8,447 bases of DNA from a virus (taxonomy: Duplodnaviria; Heunggongvirae; Uroviricota; Caudoviricetes), in the IMG/VR virus record IMGVR_UViG_2734482772_000013, positions 1 to 8,447 of that record. The stretch is one strand, 5' to 3'. Each line of letters begins with the position of its first letter. The first letter of the stretch is position 1. The translations under genes and the position numbers were made by a program. The notes beneath the pieces are model-generated. The model saw nothing but the letters and a program-made list of their open reading frames with translations. It made no database searches and had not been told where the DNA came from. This document shows, piece after piece, positions 1-8,447 of this stretch.

Positions 1-2013
1 GTCAAAACCATTTTCGCGGGCGCTGTCTTCCGCTTCCGGTTTACGTCTTACCAGCTTCCAGTTATCCGGATGCGTGCACACACGGGAGGATTCCCCGATG
101 AATGGCGACCAGATCCCGTAAATCTGTACACTCTGTTCGCCGTAATCGTTCAGCTCATCTGCGAGGTCGTAGGCTGTGCGAATCAGGTAGTCCTTGCGCG
201 GAACAAGTACGCCACCCTGTTTTTCAATGTAGGTGGCAAAACATCCGGCATCAGCGGCAGCGAGTACCGCATCCATTGCGTCATCCTTCAGCCGTTGCGG
301 GCCTTCCGGGTTGCGTGCCATCTGGCTGGCAAGGCGGCGCAGTTCACGCCACACCTGACGGGAGGGGATGCCAAAGAACTGGAACTGGCGGACCCGATGA
401 AGGCGCGCCCAGCCGATGGCGCGCTCCACGCTCTCGGCCATTGATTTTCCGGTTTCGTGGTCAACGCGTGGTTTGCCCGTTTTCGGGTCGATTCCATCCA
501 CGGCGCGGCTGTCCAGGTTTTTTCCGATGTAGGTGGCGATGTAGCTGGTTGGCGTGCCTTTGGAGCCGTCGACGTACTCCACCTTAAAGCGCGGAGTAAT
601 ATCATTGCCCAGCTCGTGGCGGTCTTCCTGAATGGCAATATCGCGGGTGATGGCCACGATGCTGTCGATTTCTTCCGGATGAGCAAAGACCATCATATGC
701 CAGTGCACGGTGCCGTCATGGTGAGGCTCCACCGTGCGGATGCCATACCAGCGCAGGCCGTCGCGGTTCAGTTTTTTGCGGACCGCCGCAAAAAACGTGT
801 TAACCAGGTAATCGCTGGAGTCGCGCATGGTGGCCCCGTTCCATTTGGGATTCGGATGACCGTTCTCTGTTGTGGCGTGGTATTTTGACGGGCAGGTGAC
901 AGTCAGAAACACCGCTTTGTCGCCACGGGCTTCGGCCAGAAGTTCCAGTCCCTTCATGGTGGCCATCATTTCTGCCTTACGGTGAACCGGGTTACTTACT
1001 CCCGCGTAATACACTGTCTCGAGATCAATCGTGAAACCGTCTTCGTTTTCCAGTTCGAAGCTCTTCAGGAAGTCGCGGGTTTTCTCGCGCTGTGCGCGAA
1101 ACTCGCTTAACGCGTCCTGGCTCAGATAGGGTGATGTTTTTCTGGAAACCAGACAGGCGGCGCGGAGTTGTTCTTCTCTCCACTCACAACGTAACAGCCA
1201 CAGTTTGCGTTTCCACCAGTCCGCACAGGTCAGGCGAAGGATTGCGCCCGGCAGCAGTTCCGTATCCGGTTCGTTCCTCCGGTCTTTATCTGTTGTCAGT
1301 GCGTCATAATGTGGAGGCATAGCGTGCAGGTGTAACGCCATGCGGGCCAGCATCTGATACGCCTTCAGCGTTACATCCATGGTCAGTTCGCCATCAGTCG
1401 CGCCAAAGCCATCGCAGAGTTTTTCGAAGGTGCTGCTGAACATCGCTGCCGTCATGGTGGCCAGCGTCTGTATCTGGTGTTTGTTGAGCTGCGGCAGGTA
1501 AAGCAAATCGTCCAGGCGTTCGCGTCCGGCAAGGGAGCGATAACCCGGTGTCAGCCAGCGTCCGTCAGTGCGATCCAGACGTTCGAATATTTTGCGCAGG
1601 GTTCCGCGTGCATAGCGTTCCGCCTGCCAGCTCTTTTTGCCTTTCCGGCGATCGGCTTCCTGTTTTTTGCGCAGGAAGGAGAGGTGGCGAATAAGCGGAT
1701 CGCGCAGATAGTACGGCAGCAGGCGGAGCGAGGCCATGGCTTCATCCACCGCGCCGCGTGCCTGTTTTCTGGCGTCTCCTGCCAGTGTGATGGTTTTGTC
1801 CTGTTTTTCCTGTGCATCCAGGCTTTTATTAATCAGGTTGCCCAGCGGCGTGGCGGAGAACGCCGCATCAGCCATTTCCTGGCGGCGCTCATTCTCTGCC
1901 CGGTAGGCATCCAGCCAGGAGGAAAGCGCGGATTCAGGAGTGGGGATCCCCGTTCCTTCACGCCCCACTGCGTGGCGCGGTTGTTGCCAGTCCCTGATGT
2001 ACTCTGCCGTCAT
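1..2013 (-). CDS. Rolling-circle replication initiator / replication endonuclease (P2 gpA-like, HUH superfamily), partial: N-terminal ~671 aa, C-terminus beyond window start
   Basis: Hand translation of the minus strand from ATG at 2013 stays open to position 1 (671 codons). It contains TVHWHMMVF (HUH metal-binding motif, codons at 720..661) and YIATYIGK (catalytic Tyr pair). Absent from the ORF track probably because there is no in-window stop. The plus-strand ORFs listed here are antisense artefacts. Confidence 0.85.
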   Translation of the reverse strand, partial: MTAEYIRDWQQPRHAVGREGTGIPTPESALSSWLDAYRAENERRQEMADAAFSATPLGNLINKSLDAQEKQDKTITLAGDARKQARGAVDEAMASLRLLPYYLRDPLIRHLSFLRKKQEADRRKGKKSWQAERYARGTLRKIFERLDRTDGRWLTPGYRSLAGRERLDDLLYLPQLNKHQIQTLATMTAAMFSSTFEKLCDGFGATDGELTMDVTLKAYQMLARMALHLHAMPPHYDALTTDKDRRNEPDTELLPGAILRLTCADWWKRKLWLLRCEWREEQLRAACLVSRKTSPYLSQDALSEFRAQREKTRDFLKSFELENEDGFTIDLETVYYAGVSNPVHRKAEMMATMKGLELLAEARGDKAVFLTVTCPSKYHATTENGHPNPKWNGATMRDSSDYLVNTFFAAVRKKLNRDGLRWYGIRTVEPHHDGTVHWHMMVFAHPEEIDSIVAITRDIAIQEDRHELGNDITPRFKVEYVDGSKGTPTSYIATYIGKNLDSRAVDGIDPKTGKPRVDHETGKSMAESVERAIGWARLHRVRQFQFFGIPSRQVWRELRRLASQMARNPEGPQRLKDDAMDAVLAAADAGCFATYIEKQGGVLVPRKDYLIRTAYDLADELNDYGEQSVQIYGIWSPFIGESSRVCTHPDNWKLVRRKPEAEDSARENGFD

Positions 2014-2019
2014 AGTGAT

Positions 2020-2385
2020 TTACTTCGTCATGCCATTCAGGGTGTCGCGGCAGACTGTAGCCAGCCGCTGAATTTCCAGCACGGTGTCTTCTGTGTCGGC
2101 ATGGCGATGTGTGATGCGGATGCTGTCGGCAATCACATCGACGATTGCAGAGGATGGGCGCTGGTAAATGCCAATAACGGACGGTGTGCCGCCTTCAATG
2201 CGGTAAAGCCTGTAATTTCCCTCGTGGCTGTCAATCATGTAGCGACCATCAATAACAATCTTTCCGTCAGCGAGCTGCGGTACAGGCAGGGATTTCAGGT
2301 ACATGTCATAACGTTCACGCACGCGAACGGCAAGATCACGCTCTGTGTTGAGCAGGTATTCAAGAAAGTCGTTGGCGAGAATCAT
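2020..2385 (-). CDS. Hypothetical early-operon protein, 121 aa
   Basis: ORF track; SD-like AAGAGGA about 10 nt upstream of ATG; stop 6 nt before the A-gene start; position equivalent to the small ORFs preceding gene A in P2/186. Confidence 0.6.
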   Translation of the reverse strand: MILANDFLEYLLNTERDLAVRVRERYDMYLKSLPVPQLADGKIVIDGRYMIDSHEGNYRLYRIEGGTPSVIGIYQRPSSAIVDVIADSIRITHRHADTEDTVLEIQRLATVCRDTLNGMTK

Positions 2386-2457
2386 TGCGGCAATCCTCTT
2401 GATACAGATGTGCGAAGGCCTCCCGCCGCAAGGTGCAGGAAAGGCCCGGAACAGGAA

Positions 2458-2688
2458 TTAATGGAGTTTGTTTTGCTGCTGGATGAGCTGCTGAAGCTCG
2501 CGCAGATCATCCGCCAGATAGCTAAATACTGCGGCGGAGTAGGCGTTTGACAGCACGTGGCTGTGCTCATGTGACATGTTGATGAACATGATACGAGCGA
2601 CGCGTGATGCGCGGTAAAGTCTGCGGTTGATTTCAGTCTGGATGTGACGACGCTCCGCGATAGCGCGGTGCTGTTTGCGGTTTGCCAT
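2458..2688 (-). CDS. Hypothetical small basic protein, 76 aa
   Basis: ORF track; good SD (AAAGAGG) about 9 nt upstream of ATG at 2688; first gene after the non-coding terminator region. Confidence 0.55.
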   Translation of the reverse strand: MANRKQHRAIAERRHIQTEINRRLYRASRVARIMFINMSHEHSHVLSNAYSAAVFSYLADDLRELQQLIQQQNKLH

Positions 2689-2866
2689 GGTGTGGCCTCT
2701 TTGGTTGTAAGTTTTGAAAACTCACCATCCAGAGGTGGAAAACTCGGGGTGGTGAGACGTACAGGGTTTCCACAACCGGCAACCAAAGAACCCGGCCCGA
2801 CCGAAGTCGGCCCCATACGCCCCACCATAATTCGTGTGCGAAAAAGACGTGGCGATACGGTACGCA

Positions 2867-2890
2867 CAAAAAAACCGCTGGCGCGGTTGT
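2867..2890 (-). terminator. Putative rho-independent terminator for minus-strand transcription
   Basis: Read on the minus strand: AACCGC-gcca-GCGGTT stem-loop running directly into a T-run (plus strand shows A-run 2868..2874 then ccgctggcgcgg). Confidence 0.45.
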
Positions 2891-3027
2891 GCGCTTTGGT
2901 TGTCAGCGGGGTGGAAATCCCGGCACCCGTTTTATGAGGTGCAGCGGAAATGTAACCTGACTGATTGCGGCATGGCAAGCGGTTTTTTTGTGAGAACGGC
3001 ATACTAAAAAAAATCCTGATACTGCTC

Positions 3028-3052
3028 CGGCCAGCGATTTTCACTGGCCGGG
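3028..3052 (-). terminator. GC-rich hairpin immediately 3' of the SPFH gene stop; possible terminator or mRNA-stabilising stem-loop
   Basis: CCGGCCAG-cgattttca-CTGGCCGG 8-bp perfect stem starting 6 nt after the stop codon at 3058. On the minus strand a T8 run follows only about 13 nt later (3006..3013 on plus), so it is not a canonical terminator geometry. Confidence 0.4.
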
Positions 3053-3057
3053 TTTAA

Positions 3058-3888
3058 TTACTTCACCGGAACAAACGGAACAGCGGTGTTGCTGGTCATG
3101 TATTGCGGCAGCGTGCCGTTCCATTTGTTGATTGCTTCCAGCTCCATAACGCCGGGATTCTGGCGCAGAGCTTCACCGCGTAAACGAATGGCGTCGGCTT
3201 CAGCCTGGGCTTTTGTGCGAATGGCATCAGCCTGTCCGGCAGCTTCTGCGCGCAACATGTTGGCTTCTGCTTCGCGTTGCTTGACTTCCTGTTCGCGTTG
3301 CAGGGTTTTCTGGTTTGCCGTGACTTTGGCGTTAATGCTGTCGATAACGGTTGGCGGATATTCCGGTTTACCGACATAAGAGAGGCTCATGACCTGAATG
3401 CCGATAGGTGTCATTTCTGACTGAATGTCTTTAAGTGCTGAATCCAGCAGTTCAGACTTGCCACCGTCGATAAACTTATCGGTGGTCATTTTGCTGGCCA
3501 GTCGGTTGAGTGCATCGGCGATCTTCTGGCGCAGGTCAGTGTCGGTAATGTCATCCACGCCTTTGCGGTAGGTCTGAAACACTGTGGTAACTTTGGATGG
3601 ATCAACCTTGTAGGCCACACCGATGTGATAGCCGATGGTTGTGCCGTCACTCATCTGAAAGCTGAACGGCTCATCGTAGGTCTTCATTTGTTTGAAGGTC
3701 GGGAAGATGTAAACCTCGGTATTCCAGCCAGTCCAGTAGCGGCCAACGCCAACCACTTCGCCAACGCCTTTGTCGTCGCCCAGCTTGTTGACTTTGATGC
3801 CCACATTACCTGGCTCAACGCGATCGCAGCCAACCAGCAGGATGGCGGCAAAAAGCGGGAGAATCTGAAAGAGTTTGAATTTCTTCAT
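3058..3888 (-). CDS. SPFH / band-7 (prohibitin-flotillin-HflK/C family) domain lipoprotein, 276 aa
   Basis: N-terminal signal peptide with lipobox (LLVGC); core with the SPFH-like pattern GNVGIKVNKLG...EVYIFPTF; Ala/Glu-rich coiled-coil C-terminus (AEANMLRAEAAGQADAIRTKAQAEADAIRLRGEALRQNP) as in HflC/prohibitin C-terminal regions. Start overlaps the upstream stop (ATGA). Confidence 0.85.
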   Translation of the reverse strand: MKKFKLFQILPLFAAILLVGCDRVEPGNVGIKVNKLGDDKGVGEVVGVGRYWTGWNTEVYIFPTFKQMKTYDEPFSFQMSDGTTIGYHIGVAYKVDPSKVTTVFQTYRKGVDDITDTDLRQKIADALNRLASKMTTDKFIDGGKSELLDSALKDIQSEMTPIGIQVMSLSYVGKPEYPPTVIDSINAKVTANQKTLQREQEVKQREAEANMLRAEAAGQADAIRTKAQAEADAIRLRGEALRQNPGVMELEAINKWNGTLPQYMTSNTAVPFVPVK

Positions 3889-4088
3889 TGTTTGATTTCC
3901 TTGATGTACTTACTGAAAAGGCGAACAACGCCTGCCGGGTACAGCATGGCAATGAAAATGCCCAGCAATACCAGGAAGGAGCTGTCTGATGAAATCATTC
4001 GGGGGAGTAGTCCTGCATACAGAATGAGAGAGACGAGGACGCATACCAGCGCCCACATGTATGCGCGAAACCAGGTCTTTTTGTTCAT
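3885..4088 (-). CDS. Small integral membrane protein, 67 aa, two predicted TM helices; partner of the SPFH lipoprotein
   Basis: Two hydrophobic stretches (WALVCVLVSLILYAGLL and FLVLLGIFIAMLYPAGVV); SD AAGGGA about 8 nt upstream; stop overlaps the SPFH start (ATGA coupling). Confidence 0.65.
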   Translation of the reverse strand: MNKKTWFRAYMWALVCVLVSLILYAGLLPRMISSDSSFLVLLGIFIAMLYPAGVVRLFSKYIKEIKQ

Positions 4089-4099
4089 GCTGCGATCCC

Positions 4100-4396
4100 T
4101 TACTGGTTAAGGAAAAAATCAAAAACGTTATTGATGCGTTGTAATAACTCGCGCTGTATTGCTTCCGGTGTTTCTGATTCACCTGGTGACTCCAGCGTCG
4201 CGCAAAAATCCTTGATTTCATGATGGAGCGTCAGGCGAATGGCAGGGGCCGTGGTTCTGGCGTGCTCCAGCTCATCCAGCAGTGCCAACACCACTGACGG
4301 TTGTAAGCTCACGCGAGATGGTAGTGATTCATGGAGGGGTATTCTTTGCACGGCAGTCGCCAGTTCGCGTAGTTCCTGGTGGTTGATGATGCTCAT
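4100..4396 (-). CDS. Hypothetical acidic protein, 98 aa
   Basis: ORF track; SD AAGGAA about 8 nt upstream; ATGA overlap with the upstream gene's stop. Confidence 0.6.
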   Translation of the reverse strand: MSIINHQELRELATAVQRIPLHESLPSRVSLQPSVVLALLDELEHARTTAPAIRLTLHHEIKDFCATLESPGESETPEAIQRELLQRINNVFDFFLNQ

Positions 4397-4638
4397 GCTC
4401 TGGCTTCCTTCAGTAACTGGTTAAACATATTGGTAAGTGGATTGCCGCACCCGAACGGCATCGGGTTTACCTGGTAAGAGAAGCGACCACCTGTTTTGCG
4501 CTCTTTTCTTATGACTGAACCGCTACGCCAGAGTCGGCGTAACTCCGCATTAATAGCTGTGGTTGGGGTATTCAGTGCTGCGGCGATTTCTCCACCGCTA
4601 CACCCCGGATTGGCGGCGATATAGTCCAGAATGGTCAT
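4393..4638 (-). CDS. Winged-helix DNA-binding protein (putative transcriptional regulator), about 81 aa; alternative start at 4644 (83 aa)
   Basis: Helix-turn-helix then wing pattern (GGEIAAALNTPTTAINAELRRL ... VIRKERKTGGRFSYQV). ATG at 4638 overlaps the upstream stop (ATGA) and has better SD spacing (AGGAG 8 nt upstream) than ATG at 4644. Confidence 0.6.
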   Translation of the reverse strand: MTILDYIAANPGCSGGEIAAALNTPTTAINAELRRLWRSGSVIRKERKTGGRFSYQVNPMPFGCGNPLTNMFNQLLKEARA

Positions 4639-4838
4639 CTGCATGACTCCTGTACCTGTCGGATAAGGTTCACCCGCACCACGTTGGTGGCGCAGAAGTA
4701 AGTGCCGTCAGTGAGGTAGATGTGGTGTGCATCCTTTTCTGAACGGTGTTTGTCGATTGTGGTAATCAGGCGTTCGTCGACTTCGTATTCACGTCCTCTG
4801 GAGGTAAAACGAACGACAGGAAAATGCTTAATTGCCAT
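4635..4838 (-). CDS. Hypothetical protein, 67 aa
   Basis: ORF track; strong SD AAGGAGG just upstream of ATG at 4838; first gene after an 86-nt AT-rich gap. Confidence 0.6.
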   Translation of the reverse strand: MAIKHFPVVRFTSRGREYEVDERLITTIDKHRSEKDAHHIYLTDGTYFCATNVVRVNLIRQVQESCR

Positions 4839-4924
4839 TACGCCTCCTTGGCGTGTGCGAATACCTCCGCGAATGCGGATTGTTTTTACATTTTCTTATT
4901 TAACCTGTGGTTTTATTTGCTCTG

Positions 4925-5038
4925 TTATTCGCCAGTGAAAAAGCGTTCAATCTTTTTTACTGAATGAATAATTCGCATAATCCCAATGGCGCAGGCCACC
5001 GAAATAATCAGAACAAACCATGAGATAAATATACTCAT
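4925..5038 (-). CDS. Small hydrophobic peptide, 37 aa (MSIFISWFVLIISVACAIGIMRIIHSVKKIERFFTGE), single predicted TM helix; absent from the ORF track
   Basis: Hand-translated minus-strand ORF; ATG at 5038..5036 overlaps the TGA of the upstream 80-aa gene (ATGA coupling); ends TAA at 4927..4925. Composition is a hydrophobic helix followed by a basic tail. Confidence 0.45.
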   Translation of the reverse strand: MSIFISWFVLIISVACAIGIMRIIHSVKKIERFFTGE

Positions 5039-5277
5039 GCGATATTCCCCAGCTTATACGGTTCAATGTGTTCCCCGCATTCTGCGGCACAGATCAGCTC
5101 GGAAAGTTCGTTAAGTGCATCCAGATCATCAGCGTAAAAAGCAACGTCATACAAACTCCGGATTGCCCTGGTCAATGAGTCACGGGCTGCACGTTCAGCA
5201 TGAGCGCCTGATGCACTTAAGCGAAAATAAAATCGTTCAAGTGCTTTGTTAATGAGAGTTTTATATTCTTTGCCCAT
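5035..5277 (-). CDS. Hypothetical protein, 80 aa
   Basis: ORF track; SD AAAGGG about 7 nt upstream; 11-nt spacing from the upstream gene. Confidence 0.6.
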   Translation of the reverse strand: MGKEYKTLINKALERFYFRLSASGAHAERAARDSLTRAIRSLYDVAFYADDLDALNELSELICAAECGEHIEPYKLGNIA

Positions 5278-5288
5278 CGCAACGCCCT

Positions 5289-5576
5289 TTAATCTGCTTT
5301 CTGAATTTCAGCTTCTGAATCCATACAAATAATTTCGATATAAGGTTCATCGCCATTAGCCTGGCGTGCCTTTTCAGCTTCACTAATGATTTCTCGTACG
5401 GTCTGGTACGGAAGTTCCACAAGCAGTCGCGTGCCGTTCAGATAAACGTAAGTGGCTTCGTTGACTCCGTTTTTACCCGCCGGAGCCACTCCATCAATAG
5501 CGGATGCGCGTAATAACAGTTCACCGCGAAAATCAATAAAACGGATAAATACACCTTGTGCATGCTCTTTGGTCAT
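5289..5576 (-). CDS. Hypothetical protein, about 95 aa (ORF track gives a 115-aa version from 5636 that would overlap the upstream gene by 50 nt)
   Basis: ATG at 5576 is preceded by AGGTG and lies 10 nt after the upstream stop at 5587; chosen over the longer ORF for operon packing. Confidence 0.55.
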   Translation of the reverse strand: MTKEHAQGVFIRFIDFRGELLLRASAIDGVAPAGKNGVNEATYVYLNGTRLLVELPYQTVREIISEAEKARQANGDEPYIEIICMDSEAEIQKAD

Positions 5577-5586
5577 AAAGCACCTG

Positions 5587-5925
5587 TTATAAATCAGCCT
5601 GTTTAATAAAACTTTGTCCGCGAAGCAGACGATCAACCGTGCGTAGTGCTTCGTATAATGTGAAATCCTGCCCGAACTGATTGTCGCCGCAGCTCAATGC
5701 AAAAATGCGGTTTCCGGTAAACGGATTGCGTGGGCATTTGTGGACCACGATTCCAGCTTTCTCAATCAACCAGGCATGCTCGCCGATTTGTTTTACTGGG
5801 TAGCCATCCGGCGTTGCGTGTGTTTCGCTCAGGCTGTAGCGAGAGCTGCTACGTGATGCGCTGGTAGCGAAACGGTTAGCGTGGCGTTCTGTTCCGGTGC
5901 GAAAATTACGGCGTTGCTTCAGCAT
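5587..5925 (-). CDS. Hypothetical protein, 112 aa
   Basis: ORF track; AGGTG SD about 10 nt upstream; starts 14 nt after the cox-like stop. Confidence 0.6.
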   Translation of the reverse strand: MLKQRRNFRTGTERHANRFATSASRSSSRYSLSETHATPDGYPVKQIGEHAWLIEKAGIVVHKCPRNPFTGNRIFALSCGDNQFGQDFTLYEALRTVDRLLRGQSFIKQADL

Positions 5926-5939
5926 AAAATGACACCTCG

Positions 5940-6218
5940 TTATTTTGTCATCTGCACGTATTTCTCTGCGCTCCTGATTGTTTTCAGGAAAAGAGCGAAG
6001 AGATTTACTGTGCGTCTTGAGTTCTTTTCACCCTGGTTGATGGGAATCGAACCTCTGTCAGCCTGTCTTTTCACTGTGTTAACAGCTTGTTTGGTACGCT
6101 TTGCGTAATCTTTCAGGCTTTCTTCAAGTATTGGTAATCCATGCTCATCGCGGTATGGGTAGAACGCCGCTAAACGCTCAATGTCTTCCTGTTCGTATGT
6201 ATTCAAGACCTCTGCCAT
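5940..6218 (-). CDS. Cox/Apl-like small DNA-binding regulator-excisionase, 92 aa (first gene of the early operon)
   Basis: Position (first gene divergent from the repressor) and size (P2 Cox is about 91 aa); putative HTH segment LKDYAKRTKQAVNTVKRQADRGSIP. Function assigned by synteny and motif, not by a measured alignment. Confidence 0.55.
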   Translation of the reverse strand: MAEVLNTYEQEDIERLAAFYPYRDEHGLPILEESLKDYAKRTKQAVNTVKRQADRGSIPINQGEKNSRRTVNLFALFLKTIRSAEKYVQMTK

Positions 6219-6309
6219 GATGTGATAACCTGTTCTATCTGTGGTTATTTGTTACCGAAAGTCGTCGGTAGACTACTTTTGAGATTAATTTAGTCGTCTG
6301 GAGACCACC
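6219..6309. promoter_or_regulatory. Divergent immunity switch region (expected early and repressor promoters plus operators)
   Basis: 91-bp gap between divergent cox-like and C-like genes; 14-bp direct repeat AGTCGTCgGtAGAC (6260..6273) and AGTCGTCtGgAGAC (6292..6305), 12/14 identical, 32 bp apart. -35/-10 elements could not be assigned confidently. Confidence 0.5.
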
Positions 6310-6621
6310 ATGTCAAGTGGGTATGAAAAAAAACTGAAAGAGATACGGAAGAGTGAAGGGTTAACTCAAGTTGAGTTTGCCGATGTTACCGGGATAAATC
6401 TCGGAACTATAAAGAATTATGAGAGTGGCAAAAGAGAGGTTGGTTTAAGCGTTGTCGATCGCGTAATTAATTCTAAAGATTTCGAAAAGTACACAATGTG
6501 GCTTATGACGGGAAAAACAAATGAGGCTGCAGGGCAGATCAGTCCGTCTCTCTCCCCTGATGGGCCAGAAAACACATCGCCTTCTCAAAAACTCCGCAAA
6601 ACTGGCACACAGCCCGGCTAA
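6310..6621 (+). CDS. Immunity repressor, XRE-family HTH (P2 C-type), 103 aa
   Basis: HTH_XRE pattern (LTQVEFADVTGINLGTIKNYESGKR); size and position immediately upstream of int on the same strand as in P2 (C about 99 aa); GGAGA SD 7 nt upstream. Confidence 0.85.
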   Translation: MSSGYEKKLKEIRKSEGLTQVEFADVTGINLGTIKNYESGKREVGLSVVDRVINSKDFEKYTMWLMTGKTNEAAGQISPSLSPDGPENTSPSQKLRKTGTQPG

Positions 6622-6670
6622 TCATGGAGCGCTGGGGGCATGGTGGTCTTGTAACGCTGGGGTTTCACGA

Positions 6671-7648
6671 ATGAGCATAAAATCAATTCCTGGAGGGTAT
6701 CTTCTTGACATGCGCCCAGAGGGGCGTAAAGGCAAACGCATTCGCAAAAAATTTAAAACGAAATCGGATGCAGTTTTATATGAGCGGTGGGTGCTGGCGC
6801 AACAGCATAACAATGAGTGGAAAGGAAACTCCATTGATCGCCGCCCGCTGTCAGTGCTTATTGACTTGTGGTGGAAATACCACGGCCAGCTAATGAAGTC
6901 AGGGCATAACACGCGCCTTAAATTGCTGCGCTTGAGTGAGGCAATGGATGACCCGTGCGTGCATAAACTTAATACAACGATGCTCACCGAGCTACGTGTG
7001 TCCAGGATAGAGCAGGGGATACAGCCCAGCACCATAAATCGAGAGATTGGGGCGTTAAGCGCGATGTTTAGTGCGCTCATCTCTTCCGGCCATTTCCTTA
7101 ACGATAACCCCATTCAAGGTCTGAAAGGAATGAAGGTTAACGAGCGCGAAATGGGATATCTGAGTAAGTCTGAATGTGTTCAGTTGCTGGATGCACTGGC
7201 TGAAAATCCCGATGAGCGGCTGGCTGTCGAAATTCTTTTGTCGACCGGGGCACGATGGGGCGAGGTAGCGGCACTGGAGCAGCGCCGCGTTCTTCATTGT
7301 CGAATCATTTTTTCAAAAACGAAGAACAGCAAAAACCGTACCGTTCCTATTTCTGAAAGCCTGTTTGAAAAGATCAAAAAACGGGGCGGGAAACTGGTGT
7401 TTCCGACGCTGGATTATCCATTGGTTCGCGATGTCATCAAAACGGTCGCACCTGATGTTCCTGACGGCCAGGCTGTTCATGCGCTGCGCCACACCTTCGC
7501 CAGTCATTTCATGATGAACGGCGGCAATATTCTGACACTCCAGAAAATTCTGGGGCACGCAAAGATTCAGACAACGATGATTTATGCCCATCTTGCGCCG
7601 GATTACTTGCAGGATGCGGTGAGATTTAATCCACTAGGAGGTGCTTAA
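6671..7648 (+). CDS. int: Tyrosine site-specific integrase (P2/186 family), 325 aa
   Basis: C-terminal catalytic motifs (TGARWGE; HALRHTFASHFMMNGG; LQKILGH; MIYAH with the catalytic Tyr). N-terminus MSIKS...GRKGKRIRKKF resembles P2-family Int as I recall it. The 50 aa upstream in the 6521 ORF are not integrase-like and overlap the repressor gene, so start is placed at 6671. Confidence 0.95.
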   Translation: MSIKSIPGGYLLDMRPEGRKGKRIRKKFKTKSDAVLYERWVLAQQHNNEWKGNSIDRRPLSVLIDLWWKYHGQLMKSGHNTRLKLLRLSEAMDDPCVHKLNTTMLTELRVSRIEQGIQPSTINREIGALSAMFSALISSGHFLNDNPIQGLKGMKVNEREMGYLSKSECVQLLDALAENPDERLAVEILLSTGARWGEVAALEQRRVLHCRIIFSKTKNSKNRTVPISESLFEKIKKRGGKLVFPTLDYPLVRDVIKTVAPDVPDGQAVHALRHTFASHFMMNGGNILTLQKILGHAKIQTTMIYAHLAPDYLQDAVRFNPLGGA

Positions 7649-7650
7649 GA

Positions 7651-8013
7651 ATGATGCATCCTTTAGATAAACTTAAAGAAATGGCAACGCTCGATAATTT
7701 TGCGCGTTTTCTCAATGAGTCGTCTGCGAATGAAAAATGTTTGTCGTGTGGCGATACGGATATGTACATGTATTTGACGAATATTGTTGAGGTGGGGCCT
7801 GAGCCGAAAACTGCTGAGGAGTGTAATTTAGGCACTCTTGTTATGCTTGATTATATTGGCCCATTTACTGGGTATCCTGGATATGAGGGACATGATCGGG
7901 AAAATATCCATAACTATGAATTCAGACTTACCTGCAACAGATGTGGGTTTGTTCATCGTTACTCGGCCCGAGCTTTTATGAGCTGGGTAGGTAAGCAGGG
8001 TGATGACAAATGA
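7651..8013 (+). CDS. Hypothetical protein with two CxxC pairs (putative zinc-ribbon), 120 aa; cargo gene coupled to int
   Basis: Strong SD (AGGAGGTG) 7 nt upstream of ATG, which lies 2 nt after the int stop; Cys pairs CLSC and CNRC about 62 residues apart; no family recognised. Confidence 0.65.
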   Translation: MMHPLDKLKEMATLDNFARFLNESSANEKCLSCGDTDMYMYLTNIVEVGPEPKTAEECNLGTLVMLDYIGPFTGYPGYEGHDRENIHNYEFRLTCNRCGFVHRYSARAFMSWVGKQGDDK

Positions 8014-8447
8014 TGCCGGACAGCACTCCTATTTTACCGTTCAGAAAAAAGAAAGAGAATGCCTATAATGTATCCAACAACCAAGTGACAGGAAGTGGTA
8101 ATGATGGAGGCGATGGCATGAATGACGACCTTGAACGGCGAGTTAGTTGCCTGGAAAGTGATGTAACTGAAATCAAAAACAACCTGATTACTCTCACCAC
8201 GAGAAGCGAATCCTTTGCCACCAAATTTGATGTACTGGAGATTCGTGAAGGGTTGCGGCTTGAGATGGCAGAATCGCGCCAATCCCTGAAGTCTGAGATG
8301 GCTGATTTGCGCCAGTCTCTGAAAGTTGAGATGGCTGAGCATCGTACTGAACTTCAGAAATCATTTGCAAATCAGACCTGGCTACTCACAGGTATTGTCC
8401 TGTCTGCGATGGCTGTGCTTGTGGCTGTTGTTACTGTTATTAAGTAA
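8010..8447 (+). CDS. Coiled-coil, C-terminally membrane-anchored protein (XhlA/DUF1640-like architecture), 145 aa; possible alternative start at 8118 (109 aa)
   Basis: ATG overlaps the upstream stop (ATGA); C-terminal hydrophobic helix WLLTGIVLSAMAVLVAVVTVIK; central tandem 11-residue repeats; the first 36 residues are low-complexity and an in-frame ATG at 8118 has a GGAGG SD 7 nt upstream. Confidence 0.7.
   Translation: MMPDSTPILPFRKKKENAYNVSNNQVTGSGNDGGDGMNDDLERRVSCLESDVTEIKNNLITLTTRSESFATKFDVLEIREGLRLEMAESRQSLKSEMADLRQSLKVEMAEHRTELQKSFANQTWLLTGIVLSAMAVLVAVVTVIK
8262..8360 (+). repeat. Three tandem 33-bp repeats inside the 8010..8447 CDS encoding hendecad repeats EMAESRQSLKS / EMADLRQSLKV / EMAEHRTELQK
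   Basis: Direct reading: repeat units start at 8262, 8295 and 8328, each beginning gagatggc. Confidence 0.8.

Follow-up and report, generated by a model that had tools for sequence, protein, structure and literature searches.

The immunity switch of phage P2 is organized around two convergent promoters, Pe and Pc, which stand face to face and give rise to overlapping transcripts (PMC1904263), and the autoregulation of its repressor, C, has been reported to be positive and then negative (PMC3448106, PMC1904263). The crystal structure of P2 C is that of a symmetric dimer, which resembles the proteins that bind palindromes and reaches two successive major grooves; one dimer per repeat was proposed, and the non-palindromic nature of P2-type repeats was stressed in the same study (PMC2995052). 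A further case discussed there is C.Esp1396I, which binds as a tetramer to two directly repeated palindromes (PMC2995052).

Our study examined a stretch of 8,447 nucleotides from a tailed-phage record of IMG/VR (IMGVR_UViG_2734482772_000013), hereafter the window, which is the early region of a P2-like (P88/P2-like) prophage with a cox–C–int switch. Over bases 1-5904, it has 95% identity with Escherichia phage P88, and the part that contains cox, C, and int (within 5905-8447) is absent from P88. A second mosaic boundary, nested in this one, encloses 6256-6496 only, that is, the candidate operators and the N-terminal domain of C. Related E. coli prophages carry capsid, terminase, portal, and replication genes of the P2 type, and the gene order, with cox on one side and C followed by int on the other, is also present in an annotated P2-like prophage of E. 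coli O103:H2.

The C-type immunity repressor (6310..6621, plus strand) has 103 amino acids and an HTH_3 fold (HTH_3, E=6e-10; phrog_147, E=4e-34, full length). It is a full-length homologue of P2 C, whose structures 2xcj/2l49 are its best match in the PDB (E=7.5e-16, residues 2-99), its closest characterized relative is the C protein of WPhi, with 54% identity, and its recognition helix would be LGTIKNYES, around residues 32-40. Directly downstream, in the lysogenic operon, is a tyrosine integrase (6671..7648, plus strand; Int_N, E=1.5e-28; Phage_integrase, E=5.5e-20). On the other side of a 91-bp spacer lies the first gene of the early operon (5940..6218, minus strand), which is transcribed away from C and encodes 92 amino acids. 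We refer to this gene as Cox-like (phrog_575 Cox-like, E=8e-7; phrog_11533, E=1.5e-51), an assignment that rests mainly on its position; its similarity to P2 Cox is weak (28% identity over 25 amino acids, in the helix-turn-helix region only), and it is unrelated to WPhi Cox (BLASTP E=20).

Of 5426 complete E. coli genomes, 229 match the switch region, and in 74 of these the match covers 80% of the region or more. In the phage records, the only blastn match to it was a stretch of 99 bp in the 3' end of C, so that the module is found in no isolated phage there, and no C protein with at least 60% identity to that of the window was detected. Because of the latter result, it is plausible that the C protein and its candidate operators constitute a new immunity specificity, a candidate class whose relatives with C proteins 70-84% identical have the recognition helix and the operator arms in common with the window. 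The sites described below provide a concrete operator candidate for a C class that is common in E. coli genomes and absent from the isolated-phage records searched. The UTI89 prophage PhiECO5, published as 'class IX', was ruled out as a member of the same class, given that its repressor has 113 amino acids and its Cox-family protein has 173.

The window holds another element related to immunity control. On the minus strand, between the gene of the replication endonuclease and an SPFH/Band-7 gene (3058-3888), a C4 antisense RNA of Rfam (2745-2832, 80.5 bits) lies beside the Hfq-binding sRNA isrK (2868-2942, 64.3 bits), the two of them spanning 2745-2942. This pair looks like an antisense immunity/antirepressor control module of the P1/P7 type within a P2-like prophage, and some E. 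coli relatives have a 'derepression protein' annotated at this locus.

The repeat pair and the predicted promoters

A previous reading of the window, made from the sequence alone, had pointed to two 14-bp direct repeats located between the Cox-like gene and C, and our inspection of the sequence agrees with it: AGTCGTCGGTAGAC at 6260-6273 and AGTCGTCTGGAGAC at 6292-6305 are identical in 12 of their 14 bases, differing at positions 8 and 10, and the second begins 32 bp (about three helical turns) after the first. When the pair is extended to 17 nt (6260-6276 and 6292-6308), 14 of these are identical (82%). The overlap of the second copy with the Shine-Dalgarno and start region of the repressor gene, which had also been noted, is borne out as well, with the GGAG of the C Shine-Dalgarno (6300-6303) inside the copy and the end of the copy 1 nt short of the ATG at 6310. 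Using an ungapped direct-repeat score (+1 for a match, -1.5 for a mismatch, spacings of 16-46 bp), the pair obtains 9.5, a value that was reached in 30 of 5000 dinucleotide-preserving shuffles of 6219-6315 (p=0.006). Across the 8447-bp window, just four pairs reach at least 9.5, and one of the four is an in-frame coding tandem repeat. Further operator copies of the looping type were sought across the window, and none was found beyond the two sites; a third AGTCGTC, at 7718, was discarded as an operator copy, since it is an occurrence at chance level. The strongest short-range direct repeat of the window, with a score of 25, is a 33-nt in-frame tandem repeat at 8261-8338 (plus strand), which encodes EMAESRQSLKSEMADLRQSLKVEMAE inside an ORF at 8010-8447; the counterpart of this ORF in E. 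coli is annotated as a DUF1640 protein.

The position of the repeats can be related to a predicted early promoter, Pe, at 6287..6316 on the minus strand, with a -35 element TTGACA (6316..6311), a spacer of 18 nt, and a -10 element TAAATT (6292..6287). It is a consensus prediction, with 10 of 12 consensus matches and a suboptimal spacer, and it is the sole sigma-70-like site in 6100-6450; it would be the expected promoter of the cox-like early operon, with a start site presumably near 6280. The repeats (6260-6276 and 6292-6308) flank its -10 element (6287-6292). The proximal unit, which corresponds to O1 (6292..6308; AGTCGTC-TGGA-GACCAC, with its dyad core at 6293-6308), fills the spacer between -35 and -10 and touches the -10, and the distal unit, which corresponds to O2 (6258..6279; GTCGTC-GGTA-GACTAC as its dyad core, at 6261-6276), extends over approximately +5 to +21 of the transcript predicted for Pe. 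The -35 element overlaps codons 1-2 of C, TTGACA being the reverse complement of bases within ATGTCAA (6310-6316), and this sharing of bases probably accounts for the near-invariant Ser2 of the C-family proteins. The same arrangement is frequent among the C loci that we compiled from genomes and viral contigs: at the C start codon or close to it, 43 of the 70 non-redundant loci have an exact TTGACA and 52 a promoter match of 9/12 or better, and in the typical locus the proximal unit lies within the spacer and the distal unit just past the -10. P2 and WPhi, whose Pe has been annotated or mapped (PMC1904263), are organized in this way too.

The promoter of the repressor, Pc, is proposed with low confidence, since the consensus scan produced weak and ambiguous candidates only. 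The candidate at 6212..6241 (plus strand) has its -35 element (CTGCCA, 6212-6217) over the cox start codon, a spacer of 18 nt, and the -10 element TATCTG (6236-6241); other candidates exist, and the homologous position is the best-scoring one in two relatives, L153 (TTGACA-16-TAGATC) and L032 (TTGCCA-17-TATCTG). Such a promoter might start near 6248 and would face Pe, with a transcript overlap of about 33 nt, as in P2. Between the cox start codon and the distal unit (6221-6257, plus strand), four 8-mers that begin with TGT occur every 9-10 bp, TGTGATAA at 6221, TGTTCTAT at 6231, TGTGGTTA at 6240, and TGTTACCG at 6250. They are mostly retained in the class of L032, which has a 92% identical Cox, part of this stretch doubles as the Shine-Dalgarno region of cox (CAGG, minus strand), and they may be considered candidate sites for the Cox-like protein around Pc.

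Inheritance of the repeats with C, Cox, and Int

Among 26 IMG/VR loci whose C proteins are 93-96% identical to that of the window, both units retain (A/G)GTCGTC and AG(A/G)C, with free variation of the three nucleotides in between, which are GGT, TCT, TAT, or ACT in the distal unit. The proximal unit is nearly invariant across these loci, a conservation that is not specific evidence of an operator because the Shine-Dalgarno, the Pe spacer, and the start codon also constrain this sequence.

More informative are the natural recombinants, which we regard as the strongest evidence for the operator reading. In a sister group of prophages (L032-L070, L080, and L082), Cox is 92% and Int 98% identical to the proteins of the window, whereas C is only 59% identical; at the same two positions, the L032-type prophages carry different repeats, GTGTACTTATAAGTACAC and GTGTACTTATAGGAACAC, located 34 bp apart. 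The alignment of the window with L032 falls to 27-53% identity in approximately 6256-6496 and is 83-100% identical on both flanks, with a transition block of 73% at the left (6230-6259). The divergent block begins where the distal repeat does, at its left edge, and finishes at about codon 62 of C, the end of its DNA-binding domain; these boundaries indicate that the helix-turn-helix domain travels with the Pe core and the operators as a single cassette. This exchangeable immunity cassette (6256..6496) contains both operator units, the Pe core, and the DNA-binding domain at the N terminus of C (codons 1 to ~62). The opposite combination was found in L151, L153, and L154, where C is 84, 82, and 70% identical and Cox only 62, 45, and 33% identical: these loci keep the recognition helix, GTIKNYE(S/G)G, together with the arms GTnGTC...GACnAC.

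From these comparisons, the repeats appear to follow C and not Cox or Int, and on this ground a reading of the repeats as sites of Cox, Int, or IHF is rejected. Sites of the Cox-like recombination directionality factor have in their favor that direct repeats bound by Cox and Apl proteins are found in the same switch regions (PMC7498355, PMC3936717). Against them, the repeats are entirely different in the prophages with 92% identity in Cox and 98% in Int, and they are maintained in those with a Cox identity of 33-62%; arrays of Cox/Apl sites are ruled out by this lack of tracking of Cox identity and by the spacing, which is typically about one helical turn in such arrays and is 32 bp here. Regarding arm-type sites of Int, the published P2-type consensus, tgTGGaCa (PMC3448106), is in neither unit. 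A chance match would be compatible with the significance of the repeat taken alone, which is not overwhelming, but it is excluded by the conservation of the units and by their recurrence across the C family. Consequently, we assign a minimal probability to the explanation that the repeats bind another protein (Cox-like, Int, or IHF) or are fortuitous, the lowest of all those that were weighed.

The recurrence in the family was evaluated by a scan of the 70 C loci for a direct repeat with p<=0.05 at -70..-20. As a result, 36 loci were positive, when about 3.5 were expected (binomial P=3e-28 at a null rate of 5%), and the spacing was 28-34 bp in 27 of these 36. The scan recovers the published operator of WPhi, GTCACCAATA (spacing 34, p=0.01), and that of P2, ATCTAAAC, as the top-scoring pair (spacing 22, p=0.07). 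A comparison with P2, WPhi, and other C loci, which the sequence-only reading had advised, is in this manner favorable to its proposal. The remaining 34 loci have no significant repeat in that zone by this simple ungapped score (31 with p>0.05 and three whose repeat is not within -70..-20); they may have a second site so degenerate that it escapes detection, or a different architecture. Several of the repeat-negative loci have a strong single palindrome at -55..-30, such as AGGACTTCAATTGAAGTCCT in L077 and that of L089.

It is strongly supported, then, that the two repeats are candidate sites at which a P2-type C repressor would shut off Pe, that is, its operators. The basis of this conclusion comprises the sequence features, the position with respect to the predicted promoter, the conservation, and the co-inheritance with the DNA-binding domain of C. 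It coincides with what had been proposed from the sequence alone, to which our study adds the homology of C to the P2 and WPhi repressors, the WPhi-like placement of the repeats around the predicted Pe -10, and the replacement of both repeats along with the DNA-binding domain of C in a recombinant that keeps Cox and Int.

Dyad symmetry of the units and proposed mode of repression

Special attention was given to the internal symmetry of the repeats. Both units of the window have the form GTCGTC-N4-GAC(T/C)AC, with arms that are symmetric in 5 of 6 positions, a degree of symmetry (5/6 or better) that occurs in 0.6% of the 16-mers of the window. The motif GTCGTCN4GACNAC, with at most one mismatch, matches these two sites only, each of them on both strands, when 0.11 hits are expected, bearing in mind that the motif was defined after the sequences had been seen. 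The distal site can be described as an imperfect palindrome of 22 bp, AAAGTCGTC-GGTA-GACTACTTT, with 8/9 arms, and no palindrome of the 120-bp upstream region is better, although its score of 6.5 is not significant by itself (p=0.10 by shuffling). The symmetry is more evident in the relatives: in the Salmonella locus L151, the site homologous to the distal one is an 18-bp palindrome without mismatches, AGTCGTCAATTGACGACT; it reads GGTGGTCAATTGACTACC in L154 and CGGTAGT-N6-ACTACCG in L155, and that of the L032 class is a perfect palindromic 18-mer. Considering the 36 loci with a significant in-zone direct repeat, the best regional palindrome is centered in a repeat unit in 28 (25 in the distal and 3 in the proximal unit; expected share 0.40, P=4e-6). 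The three bases that vary within the class lie in the center of the dyad, and the proximal unit differs from the distal one at this center because it is there that the C Shine-Dalgarno is placed (TGGA/AGGA). Since the units are dyad-symmetric and a relative has a perfect palindrome, the sites look like two dimer-binding operators located three turns apart.

These results qualify the claim that the expected operator architecture is one of direct repeats and not of palindromes. The direct repeat is there; the non-palindromic character is not, because each unit is an imperfect palindrome and the distal site of relatives is a perfect or near-perfect one. In a literature search of incomplete coverage, we did not find palindromic operators described for C-type repressors, which is weak evidence of novelty. 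In WPhi (L002, about 1795-1825), the published distal half-site is located inside a perfect 7-bp inverted repeat, AAAAGGT-N12-ACCTTTT, and several WPhi-like loci (L081, L092, L093, L096, and L107) have AAGGTY-N10-11-RACCTT around the distal unit, so the WPhi-type operators may also possess an outer dyad that has gone unnoticed.

A palindrome may exert its function in the RNA instead of the DNA, and we considered whether the distal one serves in attenuation or pausing, be it as a hairpin with UUUU behind it in the Pc leader or as one in the Pe leader, the similarity of the proximal copy being secondary. As RNA, 6248-6290 (plus strand) has a folding energy of -10.4 kcal/mol (z=-2.0), with UUUUG right behind it, a terminator-like site was flagged at 6252-6271 (plus strand; TTACCGA/TCGGTAG and then ACTACTTTTG, to 6281), and in L151 the two strands fold to -9.7 and -10.2 kcal/mol. 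The stem TTACCGA/TCGGTAG is lost, however, in same-class variants of E. coli, for which reason the terminator-like hairpin is probably incidental, and the U-tract is absent in other classes, such as that of L032. Moreover, the proximal copy has no fold (z=+0.27), a strong terminator at the distal site would block the expression of both cox and C, and neither the shared sequence of the two copies nor their joint exchange with the DNA-binding domain of C would be explained. We consider this function in the RNA very improbable.

A closer competitor accepts that the repeats are the C operator and holds that they are two asymmetric direct half-sites (AGTCGTC...), each recognized specifically by one monomer, with an incidental dyad. 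The half-sites of P2 and WPhi are non-palindromic (PMC2995052), conservation within the class is much stronger in the left arm than in the right one, and the palindrome score of the window, as mentioned, does not reach significance by itself. This explanation fits poorly with the fact that, in close relatives that share the recognition helix, the distal palindrome is perfect or nearly so (18/18 in L151; L154), with the location of the best palindrome inside the repeat unit in 28 of 36 loci, and with the match of the dyad motif on both strands by both units of the window. Taking both sides into account, we judge it unlikely, though clearly less so than the hairpin.

Our preferred reading, to which we give a probability of roughly 70%, is that the two repeats are imperfect dyads, each of them the putative site of one C dimer, and that together they would form the operator of Pe. 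We infer the binding of C, its stoichiometry and cooperativity, and the start sites of Pe and Pc from this arrangement. In the consensus dyad, AAAGTCGTC-N4-GACnACTTT, the centers of the arms are 10 bp apart, a spacing that would suit one symmetric C dimer in two successive major grooves, and the 32 bp between the dyads would put the two dimers, one per dyad, on the same face of the helix. The two dimers, probably in a cooperative manner and with bending of the DNA as in P2 and WPhi, would exclude the RNA polymerase from Pe; the occlusion of its spacer, -10, and start site would keep the cox-like early operon silent and thereby give immunity. The left arm, AGTCGTC, is the well-conserved half of each dyad and would be its strong and specific one; the right arm is more degenerate and would be the weaker, and this degeneracy gives the pair its look of a direct repeat. 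With a Pc start to the left of 6258, the bound dimers would also be within the C leader, where they might relieve convergent interference at low C concentrations and act as a roadblock at high ones, as reported for P2, and thus permit an autoregulation that is first positive and then negative.

It is important to consider how far this organization might extend. The half-sites of P2 and WPhi have no dyad symmetry (p ~0.77), which implies that the reading of one dimer per dyad may fail for the family as a whole. We see an even chance that, in much of the P2-type C family, the 'half-sites' are complete dyad sites for dimers, in tandem and about three turns apart, with the repeats of P2 and WPhi as degenerate extremes, and that the two operators, the Pe core, and the C helix-turn-helix form an exchangeable cassette of about 240 bp. 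If true, such a design across much of the family would account for the apparent binding of asymmetric DNA by a symmetric C dimer. For the window itself, the dyad units and the perfect palindromes of its relatives provide a handle on how the symmetric P2 C dimer reads 'direct repeats'. The sharply bounded cassette of 240 bp, for its part, illustrates how immunity specificity is swapped between near-identical P2-like prophages, and it would be useful for predicting superinfection immunity from sequence.

Relationship to known operator systems

The palindromic operators of P22 c2 and lambda cI (OR) and that of C.Esp1396I, as discussed in PMC2995052, have in common with the arrangement proposed for the window two dyad copies, one dimer on each, probable cooperativity, and occlusion of a promoter. 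They differ in several respects: the C protein of the window has no lambda-like C-terminal domain for oligomerization and cleavage, there are two sites and not three, and in C.Esp1396I the center-to-center distance is 15 bp, compared with 32 bp in the window, whose protein belongs to the P2 C family. A classification among the lambdoid palindromic operators (cI, c2) was discarded since, despite the presence of dyads, the repressor is a 103-aa single-domain protein of the P2 C family and there are two sites only.

The window displays a C homologue of about 100 amino acids and repeats that flank the predicted Pe -10, as expected of a P2-type switch, and it departs from that type in that its repeats are not non-palindromic, the arms of both units being 5/6 symmetric. 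With the O1/O2 operators of P2 C (2XCJ, 2L49; PMC2995052), it shares the protein family, the two repeats that flank the Pe -10, the -35 at the C start codon, and the proposed placement of one symmetric dimer per repeat, which is that of the published P2 model. In contrast, the repeats of P2 have 8 bp, are 22 bp apart, and are non-palindromic, and the contacts of the second monomer are non-specific in the P2 model, whereas the second arm in the window is recognizably related to the first. In P2 Hy dis (PMC1904268), the C-type repressor also has two direct repeats at Pe, but they are placed around the -35, separated by 26 bp (2.5 turns) and located on opposite faces of the helix, while those of the window flank the -10 at 32 bp.

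The O1 and O2 operators of WPhi C (PMC1904263, PMC1904268) resemble the window in their layout: the -35 TTGACA is next to the C start codon, the Pe spacer contains O1 (TATTGGTGAC), and O2 is downstream of the start site, with about three helical turns between the two (34 bp, against 32 bp here). The sites themselves are different (GTCACCAATA in WPhi and AGTCGTCnnnAGAC in the window), as are the spacer between C and cox (152 bp versus 91 bp) and the symmetry, since the WPhi 10-mers are not dyad-symmetric and the units of the window, of 16-22 bp, are. The proposed operator would therefore hold an intermediate place between the classical palindromic operator and the P2/WPhi 'half-sites'. It is an element of the type expected for a P2-like switch and of a well-understood kind, to which the dyad symmetry of each repeat adds a modest twist.
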